Of a stretch of 64,000 bases of DNA, positions 32,201 to 63,156 are shown in pieces. This DNA comes from a virus, in the IMG/VR virus record IMGVR_UViG_3300025000_000083, positions 1 through 64,000 of that record, one strand, 5' to 3'. The translations under genes and the position numbers were made by a program. The stretch's first letter is position 1, and every line of letters starts with the position of its first letter. The notes beneath the pieces were generated by a model. It ran no database searches. It saw only the letters and a list, made by a program, of their open reading frames with translations, and was not told the origin of the DNA.

Positions 32201-35200
32201 TGGAGCAGCTAATTTCTGATCCATGTGTTGCAGATGATTCACCCATGAATAAAGAATCTCATCCTTATCAAGTTTTATTATGCCATCAAGAAATGAAGGT
32301 TTCTCCTCTTTCTCTGCAAACAATGATAAAACTTTTGTTCTTGGATCCTGTGCATCATACCTATTCCAATCCGTTCTTGCCTGAGTAAGTGCATTTTTAA
32401 TCTCCGGTGCGTTCTCAATTAATTTTTCAAACCAAGCATAGAACTTTGGAGTAACCTGCTTAACCTGATCAGGATTGATCACATAGTCCTTCACAAACTC
32501 AGCGATAGCCTCAGTCCTTTTCTCTGATGGATAACCTACATATTTAAGGTAGTCTGTTAATTCTTTCTTAAACTCAGCCCTCTGCATCACTCCATCAACT
32601 ATCTCGTCTCCATGTTTCTCCCTGAGTGTAACGAGTCTTGAATCTCTTGCTTTTAATTGGATGGTGAGTTTTCCAATAAGATCATTTGCCTTTGGTGATT
32701 TTATCCTCCCTTTCGTCACGTCTGCATTTATAGCATCCTCGGTCTTGTATGTCCTTCCTTTATACTTAACTCCGGGGATTTTTACTGCGGCAGTAACATC
32801 AGCAAATCTATCTCCCTCAACCTTTGATCTATGGCCAATAACTCCACGAATGTCAAAAGCAAACTGATCTATGTAGTGACCTATCTCATGGGCTAATACC
32901 CTGACATCACTGATATTCTTAACCCTGATGACTCCACTCTGAGAATTGAATATCCCTGCTGCCTTCCGCATAAACCTCTTGATCATTCCGGTTCTGACCT
33001 GTTCTCCCTCAGTCTTGCCTATGTTCTTTACAAGTCCTCTGCCCATATTACGAAGTGACATGGCATTATTCAAATCACTTGACTTATAATTCGGGTCTTC
33101 TGTTGTCGATACGGGCAATGGCTGATCCCATGCAAGTTCTTCTGGATTGTCTGTTTTGGGTTCTGTCTTTAGTTTCTTCTGTCCTTTTGCCCTTGGTGCT
33201 GATGGGAATCCTTCTACCTTCCCCCCTTTGCCTCCCTTTTTAGGTGGTGGAGGATTAAGATTATTCACATCCTCCCTGATCTGCTTTGACTCATCAAAGG
33301 TTATCTCTCCCCTGTCAATAGCCTCCAATACTTCATCTACGGATTGGTAGGTTTTGTCTTTAAAGGTGACTCCGTTCTTTTCTACTTTTGCGGCAATAGG
33401 TTTTGCCTCACCTTCTGTTTCAACTGGTTTAACATCTGTCTCTGTGCCTCCTGAAACGATATTCCCTTCTTCTTTGCCAGTAGTAATGTCTCCTTGGTTT
33501 GGTTTTTCATTGGTGTCTGATTTTATTCCTTCGGTTCCTTTTTCTTTGCCGCCTTCAACATCGCCAGTAGCGTTAGCAAGGTAGTCTTCTTCGGCTGTTC
33601 TGGACTCTTGTTCTGCTTTTCTGATGTACTCTGTGATTTCATCATATTCGATTTTAGTTATTAATCCTTTTTCAAGTGCCTTATCTGCATCGGTGTATGA
33701 GTAATTATCAAGTTCTGCACGGTTTCTCTTTATCAAATCCTCCCTCTCTGCACGTATATCATCACGGGATATTGATACCTTGGACTTTCCTTCTGCATTC
33801 CAGATGTCAATACCTCCATGCTCTTTATACATGCGTTCAAGTTCATTCAATGCCTGTGCTGATGCGGTGGATTTCTTTCCTTCTTTGATGTCACGGAATG
33901 CCTGAGCCCTCTGTTCATTACTCAGACCGCCTATCATCACACCATAGAGATCGGGGTTCGTATCGAATACATCCGCAACATACTTCTGAAACTCAGCATC
34001 TCTCTCTGAGAGTGGCTTCTGTGATTCAATCTTAACCTTATCAACCTTTGTCGGGTCTTTTCTGAGAGCAAGAAATTTGCCATCTTTGATAACACCTACC
34101 TTCCACTCATCGCCCTCTTTTACTTCATATCCAAGTCTCTTTGCATTTACCCTTATGGTGTTTGCCTGTAAAGCATTTTTCTTCTTCTGTGATGCGGATA
34201 AGATGCTATAACTACGTGCTGCGTCAATAAGTTCATTCTTTTCAAGTTCTTTCTGGGGTGTCTTAACAAGTCCTGTCTCAACGGGTTCCTCTTTGCCTTT
34301 CTGCTTAGACTTTATCTCGGCTTTTTTGTTCTCCGTCCATTCATTGATTGCCTTAACAGTCTCGGGTGACGGCCATGAATTGACCTCTCTGTCAAACCAC
34401 CTCTCATCAACTTCACCGCTCTTTTTATCAATGGCAACATCTTCCAGATAGGTAGCAAGTTCCTTCTTGTCAGCAAATGACTTGTCACCTAATGCCAATT
34501 TCTCATCAGTTACTTCTTCCGGTGCTTTCTCTGACTTCTTCTCCTTCTTGGGTGCATAATCCTCCAATGGCTTGCTTAAAGTAGTTTCAAGTGCCTTATT
34601 CTGTTCCTCGATCTGAGTTGTGATAGACTGTACCTTTGCATCTTTTATCTTCTGATCGGTGCTGGTATCTTCCTGCCAATACTGCAACTCGGATTCCTTT
34701 TTCCTGATGTCATCCACAATCGGCTCTGCTTCTGTAATACGTGGGTCGGCTTCCTTTACTGTGGTGTTGATCTTGTCAGTCCATATCTTTTTTTCCTTTG
34801 CAGATAGCTTCGGGTCATTCTGTATGTTATCAATGAATGCCTTGGGATTCTTTACTATTTCCTGAGTCATGGCATTTACGCTGATGATGTTGTCAATGGA
34901 TGTCTTTTCATCAAGTAACTTCTTTTTCAGTTCTGGATCAGTTTCCTTTTCATACTCATTCCACAACTCATCAGACTGCTTCCGTAACTTCATCGGGTCA
35001 ACCTGCATCTTGGATATTGTCTTGATGGCATTATCCGTGGTGGTCAGGTATGAAATGTACGACCTGTGAGCAATAGACCTGTTCATAGCCTCCATGCCAA
35101 TATCATATCCTGAGAATAAGCCTCCCATTATAGCTCCTTCCATGAATGTACCTCCCTTTAACTTTGAATCGGCACCGAACATTATGCTATTTGCAAGTCC

Positions 35201-36316
35201 TTTTGATGTTGACGATAATGTTTGTCCTCCTCCAAGTTCCTTTACGAGTTGACCTACACGTCCTGCTACAATTCCCATACCTTCATAGGTTAGCCCATTG
35301 GCAATACCTTCGGCTGTAGATAATGCTACCTTGCCCGGAGATTTCCCTGTTCTTGCAGCCTCTCCTCCTTCCATTACACCTAAATATGCAGGGAATAATG
35401 GAGTTCTTTCCATTCCATATTTTGCTAATGATGCAAGTTTGGGGGTCGGAGGCGTTTTTATAGCCATAAGATCAAACAAAATACTCCCTGTAGATGCAAG
35501 GGTTTTTCCAATAAGATCATTCGGTATTGCTTCGGGATTCCCCGCTTTTTCAAGGGCATTTGCAAGTAATTCATAATCATCCTTAGCAAAAGCACCTAAT
35601 AGTGGCACATTAGAAAACGCACTTCGTAAATATTGTTCTGAAATGCCCTCTTTCTTTCCTGATGCCTTTTCAACTAAATATGCTGCGGATTCAATAGGAC
35701 TTGTAACTGCATTACCGATTATTCTTATGGCTTGTGCGGCTCTCTGATTAAAGCCTTGTGGCAATGCGGTAAGATATGCTTGTATTGTAGGTTTCTCCTC
35801 TTTTACTTCGGGTGACTTCAATAGTCCTTTTGCCAGAACATCCTCTATGGTAGTCTGAGGATAGCCTGATGAATCGGGTGTTTTTAATGATGTGTCGGGT
35901 TTGATGAACTTGCTGAAGTCTGTTTCTTCGGGTGCAGGCATCGTGTCTAATGCGTGACCTACTACATCACGTGGCTCATTAAACTTAAAGTTTGCCAGTT
36001 CAGACGGTGATGGCTTCTTGCTTACTTCGGGTTTCTCTTTTGGGGAAGAATCCTCGCCAAAAACTTCGAGAACCAAGTCTTTGCCAAAGCCAAGAGTCTT
36101 GTATAAGTCTTTTTTTTTTAATCCTAATGTCTCGGAAAAACTCTCATAGGTATCAGGAGCATCAAACTTATTAGCCTTCAGATAGTCATAATACTGTTTT
36201 GCATTTGCCTCATCAGCCAATGTTGAAGAGAATGATTCGTAGGTACTCGGCACATCTGCTTTTGCAGTTACCAAATAGTCGTAATACTTTCGTAAGTTGT
36301 CATCTTTTACTTCCAT
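29279..36316 (-). CDS. Large polyvalent internal/ejection protein (zincin-like HExxH plus LPD38-like C-terminus)
   Basis: LAHEIGHYID..EAIAEF; PFLNA..Q, PMPK.F, E..ANK..TG.PI, SP.KI.H....YTGG. Confidence 0.75.
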   Translation of the reverse strand: MEVKDDNLRKYYDYLVTAKADVPSTYESFSSTLADEANAKQYYDYLKANKFDAPDTYESFSETLGLKKKDLYKTLGFGKDLVLEVFGEDSSPKEKPEVSKKPSPSELANFKFNEPRDVVGHALDTMPAPEETDFSKFIKPDTSLKTPDSSGYPQTTIEDVLAKGLLKSPEVKEEKPTIQAYLTALPQGFNQRAAQAIRIIGNAVTSPIESAAYLVEKASGKKEGISEQYLRSAFSNVPLLGAFAKDDYELLANALEKAGNPEAIPNDLIGKTLASTGSILFDLMAIKTPPTPKLASLAKYGMERTPLFPAYLGVMEGGEAARTGKSPGKVALSTAEGIANGLTYEGMGIVAGRVGQLVKELGGGQTLSSTSKGLANSIMFGADSKLKGGTFMEGAIMGGLFSGYDIGMEAMNRSIAHRSYISYLTTTDNAIKTISKMQVDPMKLRKQSDELWNEYEKETDPELKKKLLDEKTSIDNIISVNAMTQEIVKNPKAFIDNIQNDPKLSAKEKKIWTDKINTTVKEADPRITEAEPIVDDIRKKESELQYWQEDTSTDQKIKDAKVQSITTQIEEQNKALETTLSKPLEDYAPKKEKKSEKAPEEVTDEKLALGDKSFADKKELATYLEDVAIDKKSGEVDERWFDREVNSWPSPETVKAINEWTENKKAEIKSKQKGKEEPVETGLVKTPQKELEKNELIDAARSYSILSASQKKKNALQANTIRVNAKRLGYEVKEGDEWKVGVIKDGKFLALRKDPTKVDKVKIESQKPLSERDAEFQKYVADVFDTNPDLYGVMIGGLSNEQRAQAFRDIKEGKKSTASAQALNELERMYKEHGGIDIWNAEGKSKVSISRDDIRAEREDLIKRNRAELDNYSYTDADKALEKGLITKIEYDEITEYIRKAEQESRTAEEDYLANATGDVEGGKEKGTEGIKSDTNEKPNQGDITTGKEEGNIVSGGTETDVKPVETEGEAKPIAAKVEKNGVTFKDKTYQSVDEVLEAIDRGEITFDESKQIREDVNNLNPPPPKKGGKGGKVEGFPSAPRAKGQKKLKTEPKTDNPEELAWDQPLPVSTTEDPNYKSSDLNNAMSLRNMGRGLVKNIGKTEGEQVRTGMIKRFMRKAAGIFNSQSGVIRVKNISDVRVLAHEIGHYIDQFAFDIRGVIGHRSKVEGDRFADVTAAVKIPGVKYKGRTYKTEDAINADVTKGRIKSPKANDLIGKLTIQLKARDSRLVTLREKHGDEIVDGVMQRAEFKKELTDYLKYVGYPSEKRTEAIAEFVKDYVINPDQVKQVTPKFYAWFEKLIENAPEIKNALTQARTDWNRYDAQDPRTKVLSLFAEKEEKPSFLDGIIKLDKDEILYSWVNHLQHMDQKLAAPWKKIVGSGYSTSKDPLISAKTMMGIDGRAQQWLLHHPYLRNGNDIKIRKDIEGLVSVLKPIIGTAKDMDYRGYLLAMDSMEAYKQGHPEKAVMSSELANKAIELWEKQYGRKDLLDFQEKIQRYNEALLDFYVETGKMSQETVKLIKSQHEYYVPLKRVFDEYEVGGGRNIGVKDVLATSEKAVWARHGSMKAVKDIYQSMIENTYQILAAGERNVLLTNVRDAFMDIQKYNRSKKIDTSIIEEIPPNQVKAYFDVETGEMRYTITKEKPKQGRILSVWEKGEAHYYDVAPEYYDPIFQQEAKVSEIFRKLSLPSRWLQAGAVVYDPTFPIRNIFRDQQSSWFYSKYNYLPTDFIKGIASFMGKDEAYQKWLASGGDQSFLVSADQMMEKDYAKKKIGRTLNRKWETYKRNPLAAFQDLSRASEIGTRLGAFKNAYKKTNDVWKAAIESRDVSADYGIHGARVKAVLGMYPFLNARAQHARMTVEAMKNPGSLFMKGMAITAPALVNWLWNNQDEESRKLYQSLPAWRRVGMFNIRIPGTDHFLPMPKGFFGVVFGSSIEAFMDSMVADDDRVVEELPNELFKQFSPVGNITELVPFIIRPEVEMWANKQGYTGKPIISESMKKLKPSEQYYNSTPEIYKKIGEALNWSPVKINHYVKSYTGGAGMGAVNILDETLQAAGLVDKKPEDSFTMLSRMPVFKALLTERPVGLQSGYVSDFYETLDKVEQLNSTFNNLVKTENYEKLDKLMADPDNQRMYSFYEGNSTAINNFRASLTWIRDAGYAVMKDDLLSMKEKQLEIKRMNDIVQETAIKFKEAYEKEEFFDYGKGMDEIIEKMRDEKKDVRGDLKQQQNLYSPYWQMLRKDNKVIFDNIREFGGFKDVDQKVRITADGFKPIDLSMEKSRLYNEKFIENYGKEVKRLLGETKDKYQSQQSKKPYDMNKEGTLLEETFNLAWERARMNTTREFYVKKLYEE

Positions 36317-37611
36317 GTTATTCCGCTATTTTTAAGTACAGTGCCTCTTCCTATTGTCTTAGGGTCTTGCTTTCCATAGATGTCTTTCAACTTGCCTGCC
36401 TTGCCATCATCCTTTATTATTGGCAGATCACCAGCCTGATCACCTAATCGTTCACGTGGAACGGAGAATATTTGCTTTCTATACACTCCTGCTTCCTGTG
36501 AATCTGATGTTGATGTGAAAATAAATGAATCAGTCTTCGGGTCATAGAAGTTCAACTGAGCACTAACCAAGCCTCCTGCGTCTGTCACTTTCTCCCATTT
36601 ACCCCCCTGTAATACATCAGCACCAAGATCGCTCATGGGTATCCCAATAAAAGGTGTTCTTATGTTAAAATCATAATGCTCATCATAATCCCTGTCTCCA
36701 AGACGTACTTTCTGATCATTCCTCGCTGTGGGCTGCGCCTTCGCCTTCTGACTTCCAAATAAAGTGATATTAAGACCACCACCTTCATCCTTCTCCTGTA
36801 ATGCACGTGTCAGTTTTCCACTTGCTGCCCTGTTGTATCTGGCTACAAAGTAATCTTTAAGAGGTACTACCTTATACTTGGTATTTTTCGCTTTCTCTGC
36901 TTCCAATGCACGTAACTCCGGCTCTGGCATCCTTTCAAATAGTTTCACTAAATCTTCTTCTTGCGCCCTCTCCATATTTGCATTTGGCACTCCTGATTCG
37001 GGGTCAACCATTACCTGAGTGACATAATCTTTGTTGTCATCAACAAACTTATCCACATTACCAATGGTGGGTTTCATTACCAATGCGGTGTTTAAGATAG
37101 CATCTCTTCCTTCAAGGGTGTTGTTGTTAAGCCCTGCTGTTAAATTCTTCTGAGTAGCATCCCAATCAACAAATCGCTGATTCTCCGGCTTCTTAAACTC
37201 TTCTGCTCTCAGTTTTTCAATAACATCAATTTTTACCTTCTGTGCGTTTCGCAGATCAGCCATCTCCTTTGTCTTTGCCTGATAGTCGGTGAGTGCCTTA
37301 TATGCCATGACCTCTCCCTCTGTGGTAGGATTGACAAAGTTCACTCCCTTGGTGGCAAGTTCCATGTACATATCCTTGGCTTTCTGCTGACGTGACATGA
37401 CCTCCCTGAATCCCTCTTTGTCATTCCATCCGTCAAGGTCAATCATTAACTTATCGAGTCCCTTTGCGGTGTTTCTTTCAATCTCATCCTGACGTTCACG
37501 CTTGCGCTGATACTTAATTGCATTCTGCCTGCGAGCGAACTCAATAGGATCATGGGATGAATCACCAAGATAAGGTGCTGCCTGAAATGAGGGATCTACT
37601 GTCTTAGCCAT
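36307..37611 (-). CDS. Internal virion (ejection) protein
   Basis: Helical protein located before the giant protein. Confidence 0.55.
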   Translation of the reverse strand: MAKTVDPSFQAAPYLGDSSHDPIEFARRQNAIKYQRKRERQDEIERNTAKGLDKLMIDLDGWNDKEGFREVMSRQQKAKDMYMELATKGVNFVNPTTEGEVMAYKALTDYQAKTKEMADLRNAQKVKIDVIEKLRAEEFKKPENQRFVDWDATQKNLTAGLNNNTLEGRDAILNTALVMKPTIGNVDKFVDDNKDYVTQVMVDPESGVPNANMERAQEEDLVKLFERMPEPELRALEAEKAKNTKYKVVPLKDYFVARYNRAASGKLTRALQEKDEGGGLNITLFGSQKAKAQPTARNDQKVRLGDRDYDEHYDFNIRTPFIGIPMSDLGADVLQGGKWEKVTDAGGLVSAQLNFYDPKTDSFIFTSTSDSQEAGVYRKQIFSVPRERLGDQAGDLPIIKDDGKAGKLKDIYGKQDPKTIGRGTVLKNSGITWK

Positions 37612-37616
37612 GGTGT

Positions 37617-38408
37617 CTATTGTTTTTCAAGTCCCTTAATCGCTTCCAAAATACTATTCAGGTCAATGCTGCCTGTCGCATTATTTTTTCCCTTACCCCA
37701 CATCAGGGATGAGTTGAAGTCCTGATTTGTTGAACTGAGGTATTCTGCACCCGAACCAAGTACGTTCTTAACACCTGAGTTGATGTTTTTCATTCCTGAG
37801 TCCCTTAACATCTGTGCTATCTGTGCAGCCTGCAAGTACGGATCGGCCTTGTTCCATTCCCATACACGGTTTTCTTCTCCTGCTTTTGTTCCAAGTGCAC
37901 TCATGTAGTCTCCCTGATAACCGGCTATCTGTTGTGCGGTGTCTCTTGCCATCTCTCCAAACTGATTCTGCTGCCTACCTACAAGTTCACCCATCATGCC
38001 ATAAGCCTCTGCACCACTTCCAAGTTCTGATGCTGCTCTTAATCCTGCTGACGTGGCTCCCTTTATCTCATTACGGTACATCTCTCCACCAGGGATGTCA
38101 TTTGCAAGCGTCCTTCCATACGAGTAATTAACAAGTTTATCAACACTCGGTGCAATAACGGCTTCGGGACGTGGGTTATTTGCCTCCATCTCCTTTGCCT
38201 GCTTTAACTGCCTCCCCCCGACTATTCCCTGAAATATTGACGGCAGGATGTTAAGCACCTGTGCAACAATCTCACTTGTGCCTCCGGTGGCTACTCCTAA
38301 TCCGGCTCTTGCTGCATTGCCTGCCAATGATGCGGCATATTTCTGACCTCTCTCATACTGCCCTTGATTGGCTGCAGCATACTTAGTTGGTGTGGGTGCC
38401 CATGTCAT
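37617..38408 (-). CDS. Internal virion (ejection/pilot) protein
   Basis: Gly/Ala-rich N-terminus and helical body. Confidence 0.6.
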   Translation of the reverse strand: MTWAPTPTKYAAANQGQYERGQKYAASLAGNAARAGLGVATGGTSEIVAQVLNILPSIFQGIVGGRQLKQAKEMEANNPRPEAVIAPSVDKLVNYSYGRTLANDIPGGEMYRNEIKGATSAGLRAASELGSGAEAYGMMGELVGRQQNQFGEMARDTAQQIAGYQGDYMSALGTKAGEENRVWEWNKADPYLQAAQIAQMLRDSGMKNINSGVKNVLGSGAEYLSSTNQDFNSSLMWGKGKNNATGSIDLNSILEAIKGLEKQ

Positions 38409-38412
38409 ATCT

Positions 38413-41058
38413 TTAAATATTACGTTCTGATGGTGTTGAAAATACTGTTATCGAATCAATCCTGACCTTCTCATCATGTTCTGATGTCCTGAGTTTGACA
38501 AAGCAGAATCTCCCTCTCATCTCCCTTCCATTAAGTTTACGGCTAAGTGATGTCAGGAAATTCCCCTTGGAGTTCTCATCCTTCATTATCTTGCCAAAAT
38601 AAACTCCCTCTCTGCGTTCAAATACCGGAACATTACTTTCCATAAGTTCTCCGGCTGCTGATGCTTCTGCGGGGATGGACACATACCTTGCAAGTGACTC
38701 GAGCAGATGATCAGCAATAACTCCAATGGCTGTGAACACCTTGTTTTTAACAGGTTCCATATTAGAAACGACCTCTATCTCTGCATAGGTGGATGTTCCT
38801 GACCACGAAAGATAATCCTGTCCCTCATCCATATTCATAATCCACAGTCTTTGATGATACAAATGTGCGAAAAAATTACCTAAGTGAAGGTAGCTTTCGG
38901 TTATTTGATCTATCTCCGTGACAAACCTCCCTCTCTTTTCACTGAATACGATGCCCTTGATCTCATCTCCCTGACGGAATGTTGCCCATACTTCTTCAAA
39001 CTCATTGTTTGCTCCGATGTTCACCACAAGTGCATCTCCACCCCCTGTTGTTCTTATCCATGCCACAAGGTCTTTAAACCATCTTGACATCTTATATTCG
39101 GGTCCTGATAATGCAAGTTGTCCATTGGGTGCTGATCTTATAAGAGCTCCCTGACTGTTATCCCAATAATACAGATTCCTTCCATTTACCATTATGCTGT
39201 CGGGATGCTGACACCCATAGTCAGTCTCCATAGGACGTGTCTCTGCAAGGAACTGGTCAGTAAGTACGAACTGCTCTGTACCATCAGGATTAAAGGTCTG
39301 TATCCTGTTTACATAGATAGATGTCTCCTTATATAGTTGGATGATCTTTAAGGTGAACCCTACCTCTCTCAGTCCTGTTATGTCACCATTCTTCTTAGGC
39401 AGGTCAACAAAATCATCATAGACAAAATGAGCAATGTTATTTGTGCGTGTCCCTGTTATCAGAAATCCTCCGTTTCTTATCCTCTCATGCAATACTGTCT
39501 GCCTCTGGCTCAGATCATCCAAGAACGGGAATCCCTGAGATGTGAGTTTGTTCGCAATAAGCTGATCACTCCACCAATCACTCGGAAAGATGCTCTCTGC
39601 CCAAAATGGATATATGAGATTCGATGCGTGTTTATAGTTTAACCGGATATATTTGAAACAGTCATGTGCGGTGCTGTTAACCTCCGCTTCTTGCACCAAC
39701 ACCCCGTTTGCGCCAAATATCTGATCAACATCTCCTTTGTGATATTTCTTCCCATATTCATTTGTTGCAATGTCAAACACCATTCCTGCACCATAAGCAA
39801 CGGTTTGTCCTAATCCCTTACGTGGACGATATAGTTCGACTACGATGTTCTCTGCACCTTCAAATGGAGTAGGGTGTTCTACTGCCTGAAAGATAAGCCA
39901 ATCGCCTCCGATGGTATCTCCGTATTGCGTCCCTGTGGATTCTATCTCGTAATCATAAACGTAATCACTACCTATTGCCTCTCCATAACTTGTGGTTTCA
40001 TCAATAGTCCCTACAAGCCTTATCCTATCTCCTTCTTCCCATACATAAGTAGGAACCTTCCACCTGTTATTCTTGCCCTGTGTCCATTCAAATGTATCGG
40101 TGACATTAAGAGCATATCGGTTATTCCCTATCCCTGTTATATTATCAGCACGAATCTGTACAAAATAATCCATAGAGATATTCCCGTAATACACAATCTC
40201 GTATGTCTCTGCCCAATCAGGGGGGGTGTGTTTAATCTTGAATAATAAAGAGACTATTTCATTAAGTGCCGGACCTCCTTCTTTAGAGTAGAAAGGAATA
40301 TAGATGTCGAGAAGTTTGGTTTTTACTACTGAACATTGCCTTCCACTCCTATCTTTATAAACAATCCCGAATCCGTGGGTTGCGCCACATTTTAAGTCCG
40401 TGAACTTTGATGTAAATCCGTATGATGATATATATGCAGTCAATGTAAGATAATCAAACATCACTGTCAAATCCTTTATTTCATAAGGATCAAAACAGAA
40501 TGTCCTCCCTGTCTCGTCCATGTATATCTGATTATAAGGAGATCCTGCTACAACTGACATCCCAGCCAAAGTCATTGCTGCAGACAGTCCTGCTTTTACA
40601 TCTGCCAATGTGTCTCCGGGATTTGCTACATACGAAGCACTTAAATCAGTGCCATCCATGACGTTTACTGCATTCACAAAATAAGTGCCACCTTCTACTA
40701 TGCTCTCAGGGATTGTAATTGCCATTACTGCTGTCACAATCTCCCATTCTTTACAGTGACCTGCGGGGTCAACTCCAATAGATGATCCTGTTTGTACCGG
40801 AGATGCATCAAGTATAGTAGATGGTACTACACTCCCTGCGTCTGTGTAGATAATCTCATAGTTAATGTCCGGCTGAATCACATCAGACCCCTCGGTTATC
40901 ATTCCAAAGACAAGAGCATTACCCCCTACCAGTTCCATGTGTCCTGCAAGTGGAGGGACATAGGTAAATGGTTCGGCAATGACCCCTGCATCAATGATCT
41001 CCTTCACCCTATCATTATAGAATGCAAGATTATAATCCGAGTTGTGTGCTGCTATCAT
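38413..41058 (-). CDS. crAss-like muzzle/tail-stabiliser (P22 gp10-like), C-terminal part
   Basis: FYND...VP..A...N.L.FG...EG; LK.G....FGIVY.D..GR; YG.QHP.S...Y.WD; KNKVF; REG.YF; GR.MRG. Confidence 0.75.
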   Translation of the reverse strand: MIAAHNSDYNLAFYNDRVKEIIDAGVIAEPFTYVPPLAGHMELVGGNALVFGMITEGSDVIQPDINYEIIYTDAGSVVPSTILDASPVQTGSSIGVDPAGHCKEWEIVTAVMAITIPESIVEGGTYFVNAVNVMDGTDLSASYVANPGDTLADVKAGLSAAMTLAGMSVVAGSPYNQIYMDETGRTFCFDPYEIKDLTVMFDYLTLTAYISSYGFTSKFTDLKCGATHGFGIVYKDRSGRQCSVVKTKLLDIYIPFYSKEGGPALNEIVSLLFKIKHTPPDWAETYEIVYYGNISMDYFVQIRADNITGIGNNRYALNVTDTFEWTQGKNNRWKVPTYVWEEGDRIRLVGTIDETTSYGEAIGSDYVYDYEIESTGTQYGDTIGGDWLIFQAVEHPTPFEGAENIVVELYRPRKGLGQTVAYGAGMVFDIATNEYGKKYHKGDVDQIFGANGVLVQEAEVNSTAHDCFKYIRLNYKHASNLIYPFWAESIFPSDWWSDQLIANKLTSQGFPFLDDLSQRQTVLHERIRNGGFLITGTRTNNIAHFVYDDFVDLPKKNGDITGLREVGFTLKIIQLYKETSIYVNRIQTFNPDGTEQFVLTDQFLAETRPMETDYGCQHPDSIMVNGRNLYYWDNSQGALIRSAPNGQLALSGPEYKMSRWFKDLVAWIRTTGGGDALVVNIGANNEFEEVWATFRQGDEIKGIVFSEKRGRFVTEIDQITESYLHLGNFFAHLYHQRLWIMNMDEGQDYLSWSGTSTYAEIEVVSNMEPVKNKVFTAIGVIADHLLESLARYVSIPAEASAAGELMESNVPVFERREGVYFGKIMKDENSKGNFLTSLSRKLNGREMRGRFCFVKLRTSEHDEKVRIDSITVFSTPSERNI

Positions 41059-41065
41059 CAGTGTG

Positions 41066-41494
41066 TTAGCTTACATAGATTATGCCAAGAGCGTTCCATG
41101 TGATGGTGCTTGTGCCATTACTCACAATCTGGTCTGTCTCGAGATCAATGATTGCCCTAATTTTTGATGTTGCGGGGTTTCCGGTATCGGCATATACTAC
41201 CAAATAACGGTAATTGAGACTTGCTCCCGGCCCTATCACCTGATCTGTTGCGTCAAGAAAATAGTTATTACCATGTGCTGTTGATGCGTTTCCGGCAATA
41301 GCCACTCCTCCTGCTGCATATCCGGTTGTCGCTGCAATCTCATACGTTGCAGTATCAAGGTTAGATACATACTGATGCGTAGCGGCATTTGGAGTAAAGG
41401 TATTTTTCAGCAACATGAGTTTCAGAGATTCATTCTTCCATGCGGTAGTGATCTCATCTTTTACAAATTTTGGAATACAACTAAGACTTGCCAT
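41066..41494 (-). CDS. Small virion/tail-fibre-associated protein
   Basis: LKLMLL...P....EI..TGY.AGG.....YLVVY.DTG...ID....NG..TITW...GI. Confidence 0.6.
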   Translation of the reverse strand: MASLSCIPKFVKDEITTAWKNESLKLMLLKNTFTPNAATHQYVSNLDTATYEIAATTGYAAGGVAIAGNASTAHGNNYFLDATDQVIGPGASLNYRYLVVYADTGNPATSKIRAIIDLETDQIVSNGTSTITWNALGIIYVS

Positions 41495-41506
41495 GATATT
41501 TTGAAT

Positions 41507-43954
41507 TTAAGTTATTTCGACTGTTGATAAATATACTCTTACTGTGTCTCCTGTGTACATCGCTACATCTGCTGCAAAGTACCTGTCAAATGCTCCATTA
41601 TAAACATCCTGCGAGGTGGCATTGTGTCCACGTGTCACACCATTGACGGTTATCTTCCACCATAATATGAATGGGTCACTGTTGCCAAAATCATAAGATA
41701 TTGTGCCCGTGACCCTGATTACCGTGCCTCCACTTGCCACAACCCCTGCGCCTGAGGTTATCCTCAGATCAGTAGGCTCATCCATGTCAATGCTTACATA
41801 ACAGGTGACATCTGACGGAGGTATGACCACTGCTGCTGACTGCTCTACCCATACTGATATTGTATCTCCGGCATCCGTCATAAAGGTTATCGGTGCTGAT
41901 GGCTTTGCTCCTCCGATGTTCTCCTCTGTCGGATATACTTCAAGGGTGTCACCATCATTGAAATACATGCCTTCTGACATAGGGTAGTCACCATTTCTGT
42001 TTACAGTGAGCCAATCCGGTTTTGCACTCATATAAGCATTATACGGTAATGCCTCCATAATCAAATCCTCTTTGTTTGCCACACCAAATTCTGCTGCTGT
42101 CCATATAAGATGATTTGCGGATGCAGCAACACTTGAATTTACAATGCTTGGCTTAATTGGTGTCAGTCCCAATGGTATCTGTGTATTCGCTGCCTTCTGA
42201 ATATCTACTGCTGAGAGATACACATCTACCGTTTCTCCTGCCACCAAGTTCCTGTTTAATGCTATCGGTACTGGGTAATTTATAGTGCCATTGGTCACTG
42301 AGAAACTACCACCACCATACGGCAATACCCCTATATCTGCCCTCCAATACATCGTAAATGTATCACCAGGATTATAGTCTGAGTTGTCAGTTCTGAATAC
42401 CAACGTCACAAGCCTGCTCTGGCTCATTGCCGAAGCGGAGTTATTAGTTATAGTCTGAGGACTTGCATCATCGGGGTCTTTCTGTACTGTACAGACTATT
42501 GCTACCGGAGGGGGAGGGCTTGCTGCTGCCTGAGAAACGAGTATTGATGAACTGTCACCATAAGAGTTTGTCAAAACAATGTATCCCGACCTTGCCACGT
42601 ATGCGGTGTTCTCTGTTGCGGGAAATACTGCGATTACTTCACCATTAACCATGGTCATCCCTGCTGACATGTCAAAACCACCACCATTGCGAAGTGTAAG
42701 CCATGATGGAAATGAAGTCAGAAACAAAGATACGGGGGAACAATCTATGATTATCTCCTCCCTGTCATCATATCCCTCCTCTGCTGCTCCAAAAGCTATT
42801 GCAGGGATGGTTGACACATAGGACATAAACACATCTGGGGTGAGGGGGGTTAATCCTAATCCAACCTCCTCGGGCAATGATTCAATTGAGTTTTCTACTG
42901 ATGGCAACGGCACGGATAATGCCAATTCAACATACCCTGCCTCAGTAGTTCGGGAAATCTCATTGCCTCTCTCCTGCTCCTCAAACTTATTTATTGTCTC
43001 TATAAGGAACCATTTTGATGTGTCCTGACTGCTTCTGCCTATAACCTCTATGGCTCGTACTTCTTCTCCTCCTGTGTCGAAAGTTATTTGTAGCTTGTTG
43101 TTCAATGACACCATCTCATTTGCAAGGCCTGTGGCTGTTTCTTCTTCTGCCTGTGGCACGGGAATAATACTTGCCGGAGAAAAGGTACTCTTTCTCCAAT
43201 CCATGTACACATACCTGTATGCCACCTGAAATAATGTCTGCCTGAGATTATTTATTTTGCGTGTGTCGTCTGACTCATAGGTGACTACCGGAGGATGTTT
43301 TGGTGGTGCTGCCTCAAAATAGAAGTTCTTCACATCCATAGAGTAATACGCATCCTCAATGAGACATTTCAGATTAAGCCATGCTGTCCCTGCATCTGAC
43401 TTTGGTTCATTGCCTACATTTGCGTTAAGAAGACTCTTGTAATAACCATTGCCATTGCTGACTATCTGATCTATGTCATAACTTTCTATCGCACTCCACT
43501 CTAATGTCTGAGGGTACTGACCATAACCGATGCCAAGCAAAAATGACTTCTTTGCTCTTGCTATGTCCATCTGATAGATTGGATTCAGATTATCCGTCCA
43601 TACGAGTCTTCCATGCACCACACGTGGATTATTAAACTTATACTTAGCATTGAAGCCTATGTCATTATACTGGTCATAATAAACTACTGTCTGTACACGG
43701 GTGTCGATGTTTATCTCTATTATCCATGCTGAATATCTCTCTGTGTCAATATAAAAGACATACAAACACCTTGTCTCTGGATCAATGCATTTACCATTCA
43801 GCAGGATATTTGTGATATAAGAAGGGTCAATAGAAGTCGTTGCGCCATCTTCCTTTATGAGCCTCACAGACCTCCAATAAGTCTTCAGTGCTGATGCTTT
43901 TGTTGCAACGGCACTGTCATATGAAAGGGATAATATTTTAGCGTATGAACTCAT
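41507..43954 (-). CDS. Muzzle/tail-stabiliser middle part, with a CBM-like insert and duplicated BACON/Ig-like domains
   Basis: L.WTDN.NP, FQ.AYRYVY.D...S.FSP.S; duplicated P.WLT...V.P..EN and G.TV.VYLS.V.I units. Confidence 0.7.
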   Translation of the reverse strand: MSSYAKILSLSYDSAVATKASALKTYWRSVRLIKEDGATTSIDPSYITNILLNGKCIDPETRCLYVFYIDTERYSAWIIEINIDTRVQTVVYYDQYNDIGFNAKYKFNNPRVVHGRLVWTDNLNPIYQMDIARAKKSFLLGIGYGQYPQTLEWSAIESYDIDQIVSNGNGYYKSLLNANVGNEPKSDAGTAWLNLKCLIEDAYYSMDVKNFYFEAAPPKHPPVVTYESDDTRKINNLRQTLFQVAYRYVYMDWRKSTFSPASIIPVPQAEEETATGLANEMVSLNNKLQITFDTGGEEVRAIEVIGRSSQDTSKWFLIETINKFEEQERGNEISRTTEAGYVELALSVPLPSVENSIESLPEEVGLGLTPLTPDVFMSYVSTIPAIAFGAAEEGYDDREEIIIDCSPVSLFLTSFPSWLTLRNGGGFDMSAGMTMVNGEVIAVFPATENTAYVARSGYIVLTNSYGDSSSILVSQAAASPPPPVAIVCTVQKDPDDASPQTITNNSASAMSQSRLVTLVFRTDNSDYNPGDTFTMYWRADIGVLPYGGGSFSVTNGTINYPVPIALNRNLVAGETVDVYLSAVDIQKAANTQIPLGLTPIKPSIVNSSVAASANHLIWTAAEFGVANKEDLIMEALPYNAYMSAKPDWLTVNRNGDYPMSEGMYFNDGDTLEVYPTEENIGGAKPSAPITFMTDAGDTISVWVEQSAAVVIPPSDVTCYVSIDMDEPTDLRITSGAGVVASGGTVIRVTGTISYDFGNSDPFILWWKITVNGVTRGHNATSQDVYNGAFDRYFAADVAMYTGDTVRVYLSTVEIT

Positions 43955-43963
43955 TCTTAATTA

Positions 43964-45481
43964 TTAAGGCGTATCCCGCATGCAACGAACCGAACATCCA
44001 GCTGACTTATTAATATCGCTTCTAAATGCTTGAATATTATTCCATAAAATATAGCGAGACCATGCATTCGCTCCCCCTGCCACAGTAGAACTCCATTTAT
44101 TACCATAGTTAGTTTTTTGATAAAACACACCATCATTGCCACGATAACCACCAGGCATATATTTGAGTCCATATTCATCTGTAGCCCCTGTATTTGGTGT
44201 TGTCCAATGATCTAATCCCATTTCTTTTAGTTTCCCCCCAGCAACAAAATCGCCCCCTGCGAATGCCATTAAAGCAGACCAATCTGCATCACTTGGGACT
44301 CTCCATCCCGTAGGTGCAAGATAGGCTCCTGCAACAACATTGTGATGATCTACTGCGTACCAATTATAAAGTAATCCATAATCAGGTATATTTAAAGGAT
44401 CATTATTGTAAGCACAATATCCTTCTGTTATCAATGCTGCCCATGCGGCATTACCAACTACTTCTGTTATTGGAGACCCATCTCGGAATTTAGTTGTCTT
44501 TAGATTCTCTACCATCCACTGCTGAGCACCAATAGTAACATAAGTATAAACATTACCATCTGCATCAATAATTCCATCTTGGGTTGTTATAGTCGAGGTA
44601 TTTGAATTTGGACTTGTACCAACATCATTATATGCACGTACACGGTAATAATATGGTGTCAGAGGTGATAATCCACTGACTGTATCAAATAATACATTGC
44701 CTACATCCTTATTGTTAAACCCTGCCACAAATGCAGTAAAATTCACATCCGTTGCTACATCGAGATAATATCCCGTCACCCCTTCTACTGCCAACCAGTT
44801 TGCTATAAAGGTCGTAGGTGTCTTCACACTCCCATTTATCGCTACCGGAGCCACGGGTTCACCCTCATCAGCAAGCCACAAAAGACAATTATCTCCAAGT
44901 AGGTCAAACAATAAATCAAACTTACCTCCGGGCACTGCACGGAATCCTGAAAGATCACTTGCCCCTGTATTCGGGTCTGTCCAATGCTGTTCCCCTGTCT
45001 CCTTTAATTTTCCGCCTGCTATCGCTGCACCACCAAGATATGTTAATAACGTGTCAATATCTGCCTCCGTAGGTACTCTCCACCCATCAGGGCAAAAGCC
45101 TGCTGTCATTACCTGACCATGCGTATAAAGCCTCCCATAGATGTCTGCATTATCCTCAGTGTCATCATATACCTTACTGCCCGGATACTCACCATCATAG
45201 TTCTTCTTCATCCACGTTTGAGTGCCTATAACTATCTCATTATAGCCACTATAAACAAATTGTCCACCAATACTCGATCCATAATATGTGATGAGATTAT
45301 TGGGATTGATTAAAATGCAAACTTCAGACTGCAATGATTCAGCATTTCCGCTTTCGTTCTGAGATGCAGAGGATAAAGCACGGATATTTAAAGCCTCGAT
45401 ATATTCTCCGGGCTGCAAATCGGCAGGCGCATCGTCTTTGTTCAAGCCAATCTTAAATGATTTCTTATCCTTCAATTGCAT
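43964..45481 (-). CDS. Muzzle N-terminal fragment fused to FISUMP-FN3-FISUMP
   Basis: F..GLNKD......GEY..ALNIR; IG.Q.WM..NL, YG.LYNW, P.GWRVP, G.SVRC..D; YYYRVRAYN..G.S. Confidence 0.75.
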   Translation of the reverse strand: MQLKDKKSFKIGLNKDDAPADLQPGEYIEALNIRALSSASQNESGNAESLQSEVCILINPNNLITYYGSSIGGQFVYSGYNEIVIGTQTWMKKNYDGEYPGSKVYDDTEDNADIYGRLYTHGQVMTAGFCPDGWRVPTEADIDTLLTYLGGAAIAGGKLKETGEQHWTDPNTGASDLSGFRAVPGGKFDLLFDLLGDNCLLWLADEGEPVAPVAINGSVKTPTTFIANWLAVEGVTGYYLDVATDVNFTAFVAGFNNKDVGNVLFDTVSGLSPLTPYYYRVRAYNDVGTSPNSNTSTITTQDGIIDADGNVYTYVTIGAQQWMVENLKTTKFRDGSPITEVVGNAAWAALITEGYCAYNNDPLNIPDYGLLYNWYAVDHHNVVAGAYLAPTGWRVPSDADWSALMAFAGGDFVAGGKLKEMGLDHWTTPNTGATDEYGLKYMPGGYRGNDGVFYQKTNYGNKWSSTVAGGANAWSRYILWNNIQAFRSDINKSAGCSVRCMRDTP

Positions 45482-46284
45482 AATGATGCTTCTTGTTGCT
45501 CTATTTTATTTTTTAATTTTCTTAATTCCCATGTTTTTAATGCAGATAAACGACATCTTTCCTTTACCTCGGAGGATCTCGGCTTCCGCATTTTCTGTTT
45601 ACTCTCCTCTGTATGTTTAAATCCTTTATGCGACTGACTCATCTTCTCTCGCAGTTCTTCCGGCATCTTTTTACCCTTCCATGGACCAGGTCTCCCTTTG
45701 CTTGCTATTGACATCTTCGCTAAAGTCTCTTTTGAAAAGCGTCCATGAGTCCCTTTATACTTATTTGGTCTGCCTGTACTTGCAATGCGAGTTCTCTCTC
45801 GATGCATATCAGACATTTTTCTCCCTAAGTTATTTTTATTCCCCTTATGAGCCCTCGACATCTTCTCTCTTGTTTCTTTTGAATATATCCTGTTTTTAGC
45901 AAATTCCCTCATCTTTTGTCTTGTTTTTTCCGATGGGTTACTATTTGCTTTTCCAATCTTCTTTCTTGTTTCTCCTGATAATTTACGTCCTAAAGAACTT
46001 CCTGCTATCTTACAGATATTAAAATATGGTTTCAATTTACTTATATAAAACTGTTCTCTGTTTATCATCCAATCAGAAAAACAAGGTTCAATAATTGAGA
46101 ATTGTAAATCGTCAATCCCGTATTTATTAACATGATATTGAAGTTTTTTAGAATGATGTTTATTGTCGATTAAATGTTTAAAGTGTTCTCTCCACCGATG
46201 AGTTATATCTAAAGAACTTCCAATATAAATCCTTTCGGGTTTAATCTTAGACTGAATCTTATATATGCCAGATTGGTTTTTCAT
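45472..46284 (-). CDS. GIY-YIG homing endonuclease with NUMOD3 repeats
   Basis: GIYKIQSKIKPERIYIGS. Confidence 0.9.
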   Translation of the reverse strand: MKNQSGIYKIQSKIKPERIYIGSSLDITHRWREHFKHLIDNKHHSKKLQYHVNKYGIDDLQFSIIEPCFSDWMINREQFYISKLKPYFNICKIAGSSLGRKLSGETRKKIGKANSNPSEKTRQKMREFAKNRIYSKETREKMSRAHKGNKNNLGRKMSDMHRERTRIASTGRPNKYKGTHGRFSKETLAKMSIASKGRPGPWKGKKMPEELREKMSQSHKGFKHTEESKQKMRKPRSSEVKERCRLSALKTWELRKLKNKIEQQEASLCN

Positions 46285-47066
46285 CTGCGGGGGGCTTGAT
46301 AGGTAGTACTATAAACCATCCTGAGATATTCGTCTTTTGTGAATGCGTTCTCATGTGACCTCAATGCTTCAATCGCTTCTTCATGTTCTGTTTTAAGCCT
46401 TTCCTTTGCGTTGTAAGCTATCCTTTGGTCATTTTCGTCCTTCTGCCAGAGAACATAAGTTCTGAGTGCAGGAACGCATATACGTGGTATCAGAGATGAA
46501 CCATCGGGTTTTAATCCGGTACTGACATATTCCAAAACAATTTCTGACCTTGGGGTGCTGCCTGAGAACACAAACTGCCTGTTCTCTCTGTCCTCACGAA
46601 AATATGCATCATCAATGGCTCCGGGTAGTCCATATAAACCTCCAACAAAAACACCATTTTTCCAGTGATCTTGGAAGTAGATTATATTTGCTACATCAGC
46701 AGCTCCAATGGCTGCACCGTAATAATTGCCTATTTCCTCTCCTGTATCATCGAATACCCTTGGGAGTAATATGCTATCTTTCTTTGTGATGACCACCAAT
46801 TTGCCCTCACTCGGGTAGCCAATTTTGATGTAATCTATGTAGTCTGCCGGAAATGCAACTGTTTTGGCTGCACTCATGTGAAGATAAACTACTTCTGAAC
46901 CCGAGTCCAGATGATACATAGAAAGTTCTTCCGAGAATCCCTCAATGGCAATCTGCATATATCTGAGGTACGATTTTAAACTATAGTCCTGCAGTCTGTT
47001 AAGCATCGACATGACCACATATCTCAGTGTCACAAGTCCGGCGGTCTTTGGTATGGCAGTTGACAT
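46281..47066 (-). CDS. Tail ring protein (P22 gp4-like, crAss ring family)
   Basis: FP.DYIDYIKIG, IVLEY.S.G, AL..Y..W. Confidence 0.7.
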   Translation of the reverse strand: MSTAIPKTAGLVTLRYVVMSMLNRLQDYSLKSYLRYMQIAIEGFSEELSMYHLDSGSEVVYLHMSAAKTVAFPADYIDYIKIGYPSEGKLVVITKKDSILLPRVFDDTGEEIGNYYGAAIGAADVANIIYFQDHWKNGVFVGGLYGLPGAIDDAYFREDRENRQFVFSGSTPRSEIVLEYVSTGLKPDGSSLIPRICVPALRTYVLWQKDENDQRIAYNAKERLKTEHEEAIEALRSHENAFTKDEYLRMVYSTTYQAPRR

Positions 47067-47069
47067 TGC

Positions 47070-47732
47070 TTATTGGTTTTTAGTTATGACCATATCATTC
47101 GACACGTCAGCAGTAGGTTTGCCTCGCATCACTTCAATAACCATCTTCATCAGATCATCCTCCCCATTCTCGGGCAGGGCAAGGTCATCAAAATCGTCAA
47201 TCTGATCCAGATTTTGGACTAATAAGGCATCGACACTTGTTATTAATGTAGCAGGAGCCACAGGTAGTTTATCGAGCCTAAGTAGGTGACTTGCTTCTCC
47301 TGCGCCTGTGCTCAGATAGTTTTGTTCAAGCGAGTAGGTGGGTGTCGAATCCATGGTATTCACTTCAAGTTCTGCAAACACTACTGCTGCCGTTGCCTCC
47401 ATTGGCGCAAACACATTTGATGGATCATCGGTGTCTGAAATTTGTCTTATCCCTGCATTTTCCGGCAACTGAACAGGAGCAAATGGCAATAATACATGAG
47501 CCTTTGTGCCTACCTGACTTGCTACTGCACATGGATACATCTTACTCCATGCGTCAATCTGACTGAACTCATTGTACTTCTTTCCGTTTCTCCATGCATT
47601 GATGATGATCTTATTGAATGCAGATGACATCCATACCTTAATCTCTTCTGGGTGGTACTGTCCTTTCAAATCACCCGCATTATCAGATGCAAGCCACGAT
47701 TGAATATTGTCAACCAAGTTTATTTTCTTCAT
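47070..47732 (-). CDS. Tail ring protein
   Basis: Position and size between ring paralogs. Confidence 0.55.
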   Translation of the reverse strand: MKKINLVDNIQSWLASDNAGDLKGQYHPEEIKVWMSSAFNKIIINAWRNGKKYNEFSQIDAWSKMYPCAVASQVGTKAHVLLPFAPVQLPENAGIRQISDTDDPSNVFAPMEATAAVVFAELEVNTMDSTPTYSLEQNYLSTGAGEASHLLRLDKLPVAPATLITSVDALLVQNLDQIDDFDDLALPENGEDDLMKMVIEVMRGKPTADVSNDMVITKNQ

Positions 47733-48788: not shown

Positions 48789-49316
48789 TCACTTCTTACT
48801 CCTCACTTTTGTAATCACAAACATATAAGCCGAATCAGTAGGCCAGTAATAAATCTTAGTTGTATCATTGAATAACACCGGATCACCTCTTTTGTTAGTT
48901 ATAAACGGAGTGCCAAGATTCTGAGTCTCCTTTTTGATTATTGCCACATCATTGGGCACGGTTTTATTTCTGAGTATATTAAACACTCCAAGCACAATAG
49001 AAACGACAATCCCAAATATCACTATCCATCGTCCGGCACTTGCCTTGCGATCTTCCTTGTCATCTTTTGCCCTTCTATCAAGTGCTTTTTTGCCAGTCAG
49101 CTCATCCCTTAACTCCTCAATAGTATCTTTTTGAACGCAATGAACAACAGAATGCGGAAGGTTCTCGGTAATTTTCAACTCATGTTTAGCCACAGATCCG
49201 TTCAGTCTGGCCAGATGATCGTTTATAGATGTCAACTTATCACTAAGCCCTTCGAATTGAGCCTCTAAATATAGCCGGTAGTCTGAATTGTCTGTCATGG
49301 TTTTATTTATAACCAT
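48789..49316 (-). CDS. Single-TM coiled-coil protein, holin/antiholin-like
   Basis: HL.RLNGSV.KHE plus one TM segment. Confidence 0.5.
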   Translation of the reverse strand: MVINKTMTDNSDYRLYLEAQFEGLSDKLTSINDHLARLNGSVAKHELKITENLPHSVVHCVQKDTIEELRDELTGKKALDRRAKDDKEDRKASAGRWIVIFGIVVSIVLGVFNILRNKTVPNDVAIIKKETQNLGTPFITNKRGDPVLFNDTTKIYYWPTDSAYMFVITKVRSKK

Positions 49317-62530: not shown

Positions 62531-63156
62531 TTACTATGGTAATTTGACACGACCACCTTGGTTATCGGCTCGTATGTGAGTAGCGTATTGTTCTCAATAT
62601 CCTTATCCACAGTCATCCCCGCATGTATGCCATTATCCCTGCCAATTCGGATATGAGGTGCAACTGCTGTCCTTATGCCAAAGAAGTTATTGCAGTTTAC
62701 CGACACGTGGCCACAGAGTATTGTGGCTGACAGGACGTTGTTATTCCCCACCTTGCAGTCATGCCCGATTATTGACTGAGGACAAAAGTGATTGAAGTCC
62801 CCAATCTCAGTGTTTGCACCTATCATCACGTATGGATGTACAATATTGCCCTCTCCCATAACCGATGGCTCCTGAATTATTGCCAAGGGGTGTAATAGGT
62901 TGATGAACTTGCCTCCACGTGCCTTCATTTTCTCAATCATCTTCCACCGGAACTCAATGTTTGTCATCCCAATCACAAAGCGGTCATCCTCCTGTATCTC
63001 ATAACTGTCAATGTCTCCGAGTATGGGTTCCTTTAACTGGTATCGCTTCCAATATTTTTCGATGTTGTAATCAAATTCGAGATAACCTTTGATGTCCATG
63101 TCAAACCACTGCAGTTCTGATGCTACTGCACCTGTGCCTATGATGATTATGTTCAT
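62527..63156 (-). CDS. NeuD/PglD-like sugar acetyltransferase
   Basis: IIIG.G..A.E, LLHP.A, hexapeptide repeats, IGHD. Confidence 0.85.
   Translation of the reverse strand: MNIIIIGTGAVASELQWFDMDIKGYLEFDYNIEKYWKRYQLKEPILGDIDSYEIQEDDRFVIGMTNIEFRWKMIEKMKARGGKFINLLHPLAIIQEPSVMGEGNIVHPYVMIGANTEIGDFNHFCPQSIIGHDCKVGNNNVLSATILCGHVSVNCNNFFGIRTAVAPHIRIGRDNGIHAGMTVDKDIENNTLLTYEPITKVVVSNYHSK

Follow-up and report, generated by a model that had tools for sequence, protein, structure and literature searches.

The stretch of DNA considered here (hereafter the window) comprises positions 1 to 64,000 of the IMG/VR record IMGVR_UViG_3300025000_000083, and the region under study lies at positions 38,413 to 45,481. 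The parent viral genome is complete, at 72,210 bp with direct terminal repeats. Within the region four tightly packed genes are read from the minus strand, and it is three of these open reading frames (ORFs) that together are predicted to encode the muzzle, which is the tail-tip protein, of nozzle type, in crAss-like and Pervagoviridae-like podophages. ORF1 (45481..43964, minus strand) encodes 505 aa, ORF2 (43954..41507, minus strand) 815 aa and ORF3 (41058..38413, minus strand) 881 aa, whilst a conserved small gene of 142 aa (p142; 41494..41066, minus strand; PHROG 644, E 9e-16) occupies the second gap. An original prediction, made from the letters of this DNA, had described a muzzle gene divided over three ORFs, with the break points used to append adhesin domains. 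We consider it probable that the locus is an old, fixed fission of the tail muzzle gene, and that the three chains would reassemble with their C-termini displaying exchangeable host-adhesion modules.

Each of the first two ORFs combines a muzzle piece with an appended extension, as defined by comparison with P0090, a 1195-aa single-chain homolog that is the nearest of three long single chains among 89 matches to ORF3. The initial ~58 codons of ORF1 (N1; 45308..45481, minus strand) are homologous to the N-terminus of single-chain muzzles, both in the match to P0090 and in a search of the genome, and an N1 motif is common to eight unsplit N-termini in a multiple alignment. The remainder of ORF1 (extension 1; 43964..45307, minus strand) is a linker followed by a C-type-lectin-like FISUMP-fn3-FISUMP array, in which Pfam finds Fib_succ_major (FISUMP, PF09603) in two stretches (192.1 bits, reaching the gathering cut-off of 33.9) and, at residues 216-298 between them, an fn3 domain marginally below its cut-off (24.8 bits against 25). 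In ORF2, the initial ~330 codons (N2; 42965..43954, minus strand) match both P0090 and PHROG 14478, and comprise ~50 clade-specific N-terminal residues and then the predicted equivalent of propeller blades 1-2 and an IG1-like domain; 61 columns of N2 are invariant across 42 aligned sequences. The leading ~50 residues have no counterpart in P0090 and are conserved inside the split clade; a degenerate copy of N1 was ruled out here, the N1 hidden Markov model (HMM) being silent over them. What follows N2 (extension 2; 41507..42964, minus strand) is a pair of tandem ~240-aa modules, each BACON-like plus Ig-like: a BACON domain (PF13004) is found at 416-476 (28.8 bits, cut-off of 25 reached), and the ~480-aa tail is an internal duplication with 30% identity between its halves (E 2e-26). 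ORF3, or C, is predicted to hold the remainder of the muzzle, namely blade 3 onward, the IG2/crass-like body, the remaining blades and the C-terminal domain, on the strength of its P0090 match, a weak match to crAss_MUZ_C and a match to PHROG 14478, a profile that N2 covers at positions 167-285 and ORF3 at positions 967-1094. The motifs by which the original prediction had recognized the three pieces are all present in the ORFs to which it assigned them (GLNKD, GEYIEALNIR and GNAESL in ORF1; CID, WTDNLNP, AYRYVY and FLIETINK in ORF2; YNLAFYND in ORF3), and the FISUMP-fn3-FISUMP order after ~55 aa, the BACON/Ig-like repeat tail and the separate 142-aa gene in the second gap were recovered as it had described them, with the proviso on the fn3 score already given. 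Local scans for promoters, terminators and repeats returned nothing beyond shuffled sequence or otherwise noteworthy.

The three ORFs are colinear with the single-chain homolog. Residues 1-54 of ORF1 correspond to P0090 1-54 (43% identity, E 2e-6), residues 54-321 of ORF2 to P0090 69-337 (42% identity, E 9e-49) and residues 10-880 of ORF3 to P0090 355-1194 (35% identity, E 3e-166). At the second break the multiple alignment places ORF2 residue 330 at P0090 346 and ORF3 residue 2 at P0090 348, and hence no residues were lost or doubled there. When the whole 72,210-bp genome was searched with P0090, exactly three matching places were found, corresponding to ORF1, ORF2 and ORF3, and this search of the complete genome revealed no second copy of the muzzle. 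The ORFs also map in the same order, more weakly, to gp097 of Cellulophaga phage phi38:1, which is a single gene of 1324 aa. It had been set out beforehand that fragments failing to map to consecutive, non-overlapping parts of one homolog would speak against the split; the P0090 mapping, the seam and the genome search all place them on consecutive, non-overlapping parts.

An interruption of this kind could, taken by itself, be the mark of a decaying, non-functional muzzle gene or of an assembly artefact. Against this, the genome, which is complete, contains no second muzzle copy, intact ORFs in this same arrangement recur in 14 loci and in more than 100 protein clusters, and Logan contigs from four runs reproduce positions 38300-45600 without differences or joints, a result that serves as an assembly check rather than as independent support because the runs may be source samples. 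Decay or artefact is thus barely conceivable, and the split is not damage. Very improbable also, if a little less so, is the restoration of a single chain by splicing, stop recoding or readthrough, frameshifting or intein-like ligation. In its favour, ORF1, ORF2 and p142 share one reading frame in this genome (TAA TAA and two codons separate the first pair, TAA and four codons the second), and passages of the literature describe the recoding of stop codons in crAss-like phages; the shared frame, however, looks coincidental, because spacings and frames differ in relatives. Indeed, across nine lineages the stop-to-start gaps range from -8 to +18 nt in varying frames, with some overlaps. All four genes here end in TAA, ORF1 in a double TAA TAA, and across the window all three stop codons are in use as stops (41 TAA, 25 TGA and 9 TAG). 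No Rfam family, and hence no intron model, was matched in 37500-47500, and no intein or Hint domain was found in the Pfam scan of the locus proteins; the would-be intervening DNA, moreover, specifies domains that are conserved and folded and that continue the frame of the upstream piece. The earlier claim that the ORFs are intact and free of introns and inteins is therefore upheld, and of the restored single chain that had been named as contrary evidence there is no sign, since the stops, the variable junctions and the Rfam and Hint results all run the other way.

The identity of the protein is read from the fold of the unsplit homolog. A model of P0090 made with AlphaFold2 from a 38-sequence alignment has a predicted local distance difference test score (pLDDT) of 83.8 and a predicted template modelling score of 0.74, and its top Foldseek matches are chains of the crAss001 muzzle (7qol_P, E 4.7e-34; 7qok_A, E 1.9e-33). 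In a VIA comparison with that muzzle, gp44, the model scores Z 30.2 with a root-mean-square deviation of 5.7 over 869 aligned residues, spanning 1-1190 of the model and 2-1371 of the chain, and the nozzles of ordinary podophages score Z 17-23 with ~400-485 residues aligned. On this model, the split locus is predicted to encode a crAss001 gp44-like muzzle. The label 'gp10-like', which had been applied to it at the outset, follows from no result of the analysis; the solved muzzle is crAss001 gp44. Among 17 single-chain relatives that were scanned, seven reach or exceed the cut-off for crAss_MUZ_C (phi38:1 gp097 at 67.9 bits; L024, L016, P0093, L021, L017 and L030 at 27.0-37.0), and a precomputed annotation with this family (PF25729) is present for several ORF3-like proteins. 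In searches by sequence against solved structures, ORF3 and ORF2 gave no matches and ORF1 matched fn3 domains only. The gene order g232-g220-g261-muzzle-g263-g434-giant protein is common to split and single-chain genomes, and the same order is found in phi38:1, following the terminase, portal and structural genes.

The two breaks fall between structural units of the model. The excerpted account of gp44 in Bayfield et al. (2023) describes a ring-joining domain and a seven-bladed propeller, blade 3 of which carries IG2 and a 'crass' body as insertions. Break 1 maps in the P0090 model to the loop that joins a strand at 54-56 to the first long blade strand at 65-73, and break 2 to the loop that joins strands 331-338 and 354-358. 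When averaged over 10-residue blocks, pLDDT is 68 at 51-60 and 63 at 341-350, among the lowest values of the first 400 residues; as modelled, then, both breaks are low-confidence loops at domain boundaries. N1 more likely forms the N-terminal portion of the ring-joining/platform domain than one of the propeller blades, and the order of strands suggests that N2 consists of blades 1-2 and the IG1-like domain, with ORF3 taking up from blade 3 onward.

To follow the distribution of the arrangement, 30 loci were gathered from IMG/VR with a profile of ORF3 relatives. The layout of N1 plus extension, N2 plus extension, p142 and C is found in 14 of them (L002-L015; 13 complete, L013 being cut upstream), with C parts 48-76% identical over the best segment; judged by identical BLAST statistics, L006-L008 do not differ from one another in this region, nor do L009, L010, L011 and L014. 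The other 16 loci (L016-L031, ~24-37% identity) have the muzzle in one ORF of 1129-1671 aa in 15 cases, and L028 is cut. Amongst the 89 C-type proteins, 81 begin where ORF3 begins, five are N-truncated fragments and three are whole chains, and a search with N2 returned 127 protein clusters, in the 120 listed of which 118-899 residues follow N2 and a C part is never present. A FastTree phylogeny that sampled 24 of the 81 split-type proteins together with 16 whole chains places all 24 split rows in one clade, with the whole-chain P0090 as sister (support 100 for each, these being local support values and not bootstraps). Loci of the sister clade have the same neighbours around a single 1198-aa gene and are devoid of p142. 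When 1.84 billion representatives were searched with a profile, 9605 members of the family emerged; of the best 150, ~126 were covered end to end in one chain, and four were split-type C pieces. One fission event in an otherwise single-chain family would be the simplest account of these comparisons.

With tblastn, ORF3 had no match at E <= 1e-5 in 50,697 phage records, and ORF2 matched seven Cellulophaga phage records, where the match falls in every case within one structural-protein gene; this collection yielded no cultured phage belonging to the split clade. Scans of viral contigs for close relatives with ORF3, P0090 and P0344 found none, and a word search with N1 alone as the query returned just four proteins. 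Some other members of the family are themselves unusual. Of two distant ones, P0344 (1163 aa) starts at the equivalent of P0090 68, and so is without N1, and P0328 (1089 aa) starts at the equivalent of P0090 ~234, and so is without blades 1-2; these could be independent fissions, or miscalled or cut genes. In the sister-clade contig L035 (1446-5149) the muzzle frame is present as two ORFs of 986 and 202 aa, ~135 nt apart, which may reflect a frameshift, a sequencing error or another break. The single-chain muzzle of L019 (6586-11601; 1671 aa) has a ~495-aa repeat-rich insertion in comparison with that of L018 (6090-9629; 1179 aa, 46% identical). A location of this insertion at the break-1 site was ruled out, as it lies further in, after residue ~114; it indicates that large in-chain insertions are tolerated elsewhere in the N-terminal propeller region.

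The muzzle pieces and their extensions have very different histories. When conservation was expressed as identity per length over the 36 pairs among nine lineages, the muzzle pieces N1, N2 and C gave 0.52, 0.61 and 0.55 and p142 gave 0.54, and the value was 0.31 for extension 1 and 0.14 for extension 2, for which BLAST coverage is zero in some pairs. In extension 1 a FISUMP module comes first in every case, and is followed by fn3, Lcl_C, leucine-rich repeats or more FISUMP; extension 2 may be made up of BACON/Ig domains, of fn3 arrays with Ig_Rha78A_N, of FISUMP or of a Pel9A-like beta-helix. The proposal that the new C-termini carry exchangeable modules is consistent with the way in which the muzzle pieces are kept and the extensions replaced across lineages. 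A Pel9A-like right-handed beta-helix (63.5 bits) is encoded in L006 (5762-8551, plus strand), and equally in L007 and L008, by a gene of its own, 929 aa long, that stands between a short N2 gene and p142; its predicted fold is that of a tailspike-like depolymerase, encoded within what was once the reading frame of the muzzle. Published surveys, in the parts drawn on here, describe Fib_succ_major and DUF1566 motifs as C-type-lectin-fold variable targets of diversity-generating retroelements, and link such motifs in Bacteroides phages to tropism. Because the modules are exchanged, and because of what these surveys report of the lectin-fold motif, the extensions are read as putative host-binding modules, and the comparative data fit new C-termini that carry exchangeable, putatively binding modules. 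Alternatively, the split could be real, and the pieces assemble, with the extensions acting as structural decorations or general polysaccharide-matrix adhesins and receptor specificity residing in other tail proteins. BACON, fn3 and Ig-like domains are indeed generic, and the neighbourhood contains further large virion genes (609 aa at 49307-51136; 434 aa at 36307-37611). The extensions are nevertheless the most exchanged part of the locus, they include a Pel9A-like beta-helix typical of depolymerase tailspikes, and their C-type-lectin-fold motifs are, in the surveyed excerpts, variable ligand-binding targets in other phages; we regard a purely structural or matrix-binding role as unlikely.

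The first break is not always open. N1, FISUMP and N2 occur in one chain in three of the 120 listed N2-bearing proteins (P0165, P0169 and P0209), and in P0154 and P0179, which are cut at the 5' end, lectin sequence runs directly into N2. In a tree of 117 N2 rows, P0165, P0169 and P0209 lie at two separate places within the N2-only clade, and these nested positions make secondary fusion of ORF1 to ORF2 the simplest reading. Since some relatives have N1, lectin and N2 in one chain, break 1 is facultative, and a break that can be either open or closed speaks for the two ORFs adjoining in the particle, ORF1 by its end and ORF2 by its start. These observations bear on whether the pieces meet at all. 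It might be that they stay apart, with ORF1 and ORF2 serving as independent fibre or decoration proteins elsewhere on the tail and ORF3 alone forming a reduced muzzle without blades 1-2 and the N-terminal platform strands. Co-assembly of the chains is a prediction from the genes, and the starts of P0344 (after N1) and P0328 (before the IG1-like part) could mean that shortened muzzles exist. Yet N2 is as conserved as C (0.61 versus 0.55) and supplies the parts that a seven-bladed propeller requires in order to close, no residues are missing or duplicated at the seam of break 2, some relatives have ORF1 and ORF2 re-fused, and in the sister clade the three parts form one chain. Separate fates for the pieces are, on balance, distinctly unlikely, more so than extensions without a role in recognition.

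The small gene in the second gap is as characteristic of the split as the breaks themselves. It is present in the window and in all 14 split loci, and with an HMM it was found to be absent from the 16 other loci, from phi38:1 and from six sister-clade loci; a displaced neighbour gene of single-chain genomes was ruled out as its source, the HMM finding no copy there. A model of p142 (pLDDT 75.7) matched Bas63 connector chains in Foldseek at a probability of 0.94, and an exhaustive search with VIA gave seven chains at Z >= 5, every one of them part of a phage tail or neck, before the scores dropped to Z 4.8. The seven were the Bxb1 tail tip (Z 8.0), the Sf14 neck (chain K; Z 7.9, 103 aligned), the KP1 baseplate (Z 7.8), the phi812 baseplate and the 7-7-1 tail fibres (both Z 6.5), the GP4 fibre I/adaptor 8jou_a (Z 6.2) and the HFTV1 tail (Z 5.8), all within the range of VIA Z <= 8 that can reflect a common arrangement. 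Nine matches at E <= 0.001 were found in BFVD, a 7-7-1 structural protein among them; a lead to PF23140 in Atlas scored only 0.86, and the p142 profile had no match by sequence to solved structures. The Sf14, Bas63 and GP4 proteins have been grouped as whisker/Fiber-1 structural homologs that dock on a 'rope', in the portion of that study available here (Sci Adv 2025, PMC12609058). The model tentatively suggests that p142 is a whisker/Fiber-1-like small tail appendage protein, an assignment to which we give somewhat less than an even chance. Its fold matches to GP4 Fiber-1, Bas63 gp5 and the Sf14 neck protein are weak and have no counterpart by sequence, and no equivalent was identified here of the rope on which those proteins dock.

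Taken together, the results may be explained as follows. Foreign coding DNA would have entered two surface loops of the muzzle gene in the ancestor of a widespread clade of environmental phages with genomes of ~72-79 kb, the first loop following the N-terminal ring-joining segment and the second lying where the chain leaves the IG1-like domain, ahead of blade 3. With both insertions would have come a stop and a restart, so that the muzzle would be made as three polypeptides: ORF1, consisting of N1 and lectin-like modules; ORF2, with a new ~50-aa leader, blades 1-2, the IG1-like domain and BACON/Ig modules; and ORF3, the rest. Expressed from tightly packed cistrons, the three chains would reassemble non-covalently into the usual protomer, in which N1 and N2 would act as built-in anchors whilst the free C-termini project carbohydrate-binding-type or depolymerase modules for host adhesion and recognition. 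The p142 gene would have arrived with the second insertion. In this scheme co-assembly, outward display, binding function and the role of p142 are what we infer, as distinct from homology, conservation, origin, exchange and re-fusion, which are read from comparison of the sequences.

Several points weigh against the scheme. The case as a whole is built from genes, sequence comparison and the model of an unsplit homolog, and the fold evidence comes from P0090, a protein 35-43% identical to those of the window. The crAss_MUZ_C match of ORF3 (at 749-826) reaches 18 bits against a cut-off of 27, and a sequence search of the PDB with the muzzle family profile yielded no chain. N1 is a short segment, matched to P0090 only modestly (E 2e-6 in the pairwise comparison, E 0.001 when the genome was searched) and to phi38:1 gp097 at E 0.14. 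The domain assignment of the breaks derives from strand order and from the published description of gp44 rather than from residue-level superposition. In L006-L008 the N2 ORF has only ~59 extra residues, the beta-helix being a separate ORF, so the appending of domains to the N2 chain is not universal. Finally, a Foldseek search of p142 against the PDB returned nothing at E <= 0.001.

The neighbouring late module comprises terminase, portal, a structural protein of the virion (possibly the capsid protein), small virion proteins, the split locus, two further genes, a giant protein and an endolysin. The giant protein (29279-36316, minus strand), three genes downstream of ORF3, has 2345 aa and an LPD38 domain (108 bits), and large homologs occupy the same place in relatives; by analogy with related podophages it is probably an ejected protein. 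Upstream of the terminase lie sugar-modification-type genes (60501-63782, minus strand), namely a methyltransferase with a weak glycosyltransferase-2 match, a hexapeptide-repeat transferase and a short DegT/DnrJ-like aminotransferase piece (209 aa). Four GIY-YIG/NUMOD3 homing endonuclease genes and one HNH/NUMOD4 gene are also found in the window (45472-46284, 20222-21136, 27353-28099, 51141-51845 and 18046-18936), and three GIY-YIG genes that were compared are 41-45% identical. The GIY-YIG/NUMOD3 gene HEG270 (45472..46284, minus strand; Pfam, PHROG) stands directly upstream of the muzzle and outside the conserved split, its end overlapping the start of ORF1 by 10 nt; it is missing there in eight related split loci, and a homing endonuclease was ruled out as the cause of the split on the grounds of its absence from those eight loci.

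In its overall architecture, judged on P0090, the muzzle described here is the same as crAss001 gp44 (PDB 7QOK/7QOL) and single-chain relatives such as phi38:1 gp097, and its place in the genome is also as in the single-chain relatives, after small virion-protein genes and before the gene for the giant protein. Identity between gp44 and the proteins of the window is too low for a match at the sequence level. Unlike in gp44, two cuts, each in a loop at a domain boundary, divide the chain over three genes, lectin, BACON and Ig modules are placed on the new C-termini, and there is an extra 142-aa gene. No description of a split muzzle was found in the literature, subscription journals lying outside the coverage. 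As the hallmark machine at the tail tip of crAss-like phages and their relatives, the muzzle has been described as one very large conserved chain; a large uncultured clade with three chains shows which loops of the fold tolerate cutting and cargo, and provides a design from nature by which foreign binding domains could be attached to the tail tip of a podophage. It also suggests a route by which receptor-binding proteins could gain anchors, through fission of the structure that they bind. For annotation, the finding of a split clade bears on the naming of ORF1-like and ORF2-like proteins, which currently are without a name or are labelled as lectin-family.

Essential phage proteins in pieces have parallels. 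The ribonucleotide reductase gene of Aeromonas phage Aeh1 is reportedly split by a homing endonuclease gene, and it is likewise an essential phage protein in separate pieces that need reassembly; unlike in Aeh1, the DNA inserted here is not a homing endonuclease, and the insertions add functional domains to the pieces. A closer parallel is the split nozzle of the Pseudomonas podophage A1002, which, in the part of the report consulted, consists of a nozzle-rope protein (gp39) and a nozzle-base protein (gp42) with fibre dimers gp40/gp41; cryo-electron microscopy shows the two chains jointly completing platform and propeller, and the fibre dimers docking on the rope piece (PLoS Biol, Nov 2026, PMC13730344). 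As in A1002, the parts of a nozzle-type protein are spread over more than one chain, here three by colinearity, and just as p142 stands between ORF2 and ORF3, the small fibre genes of A1002 would, from their numbering in that account, lie between the two nozzle genes. The A1002 nozzle is in two pieces, the detached part being the C-terminal platform/propeller domains of gp39 plus the rope, whereas here there are three pieces and it is the N-terminal ~55 and ~280 residues that are detached; where A1002 has a rope, the present locus has globular lectin, BACON and Ig modules on a much larger crAss-type muzzle. The A1002 arrangement is proven by cryo-electron microscopy, the present one rests on sequence, and the two splits are analogous, not the same family of event. 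A bolder extension, which we hold as speculative and rate a little below the whisker-like assignment of p142, is that the muzzle gene is the host-range locus of the clade, with the N-terminal segments as universal anchors, lectin, BACON/Ig, fn3-array or depolymerase cassettes that could be swapped, or even added as entire genes, within what was the muzzle frame, and p142 docking on a conserved new segment such as the ~50-aa leader of ORF2; it would then be a second, independent and convergent 'split nozzle as fibre platform' besides A1002, here in tails of the crAss type. Together with A1002, the split muzzle hints that the splitting of nozzles to yield fibre-docking pieces is a recurrent route in podophage evolution.

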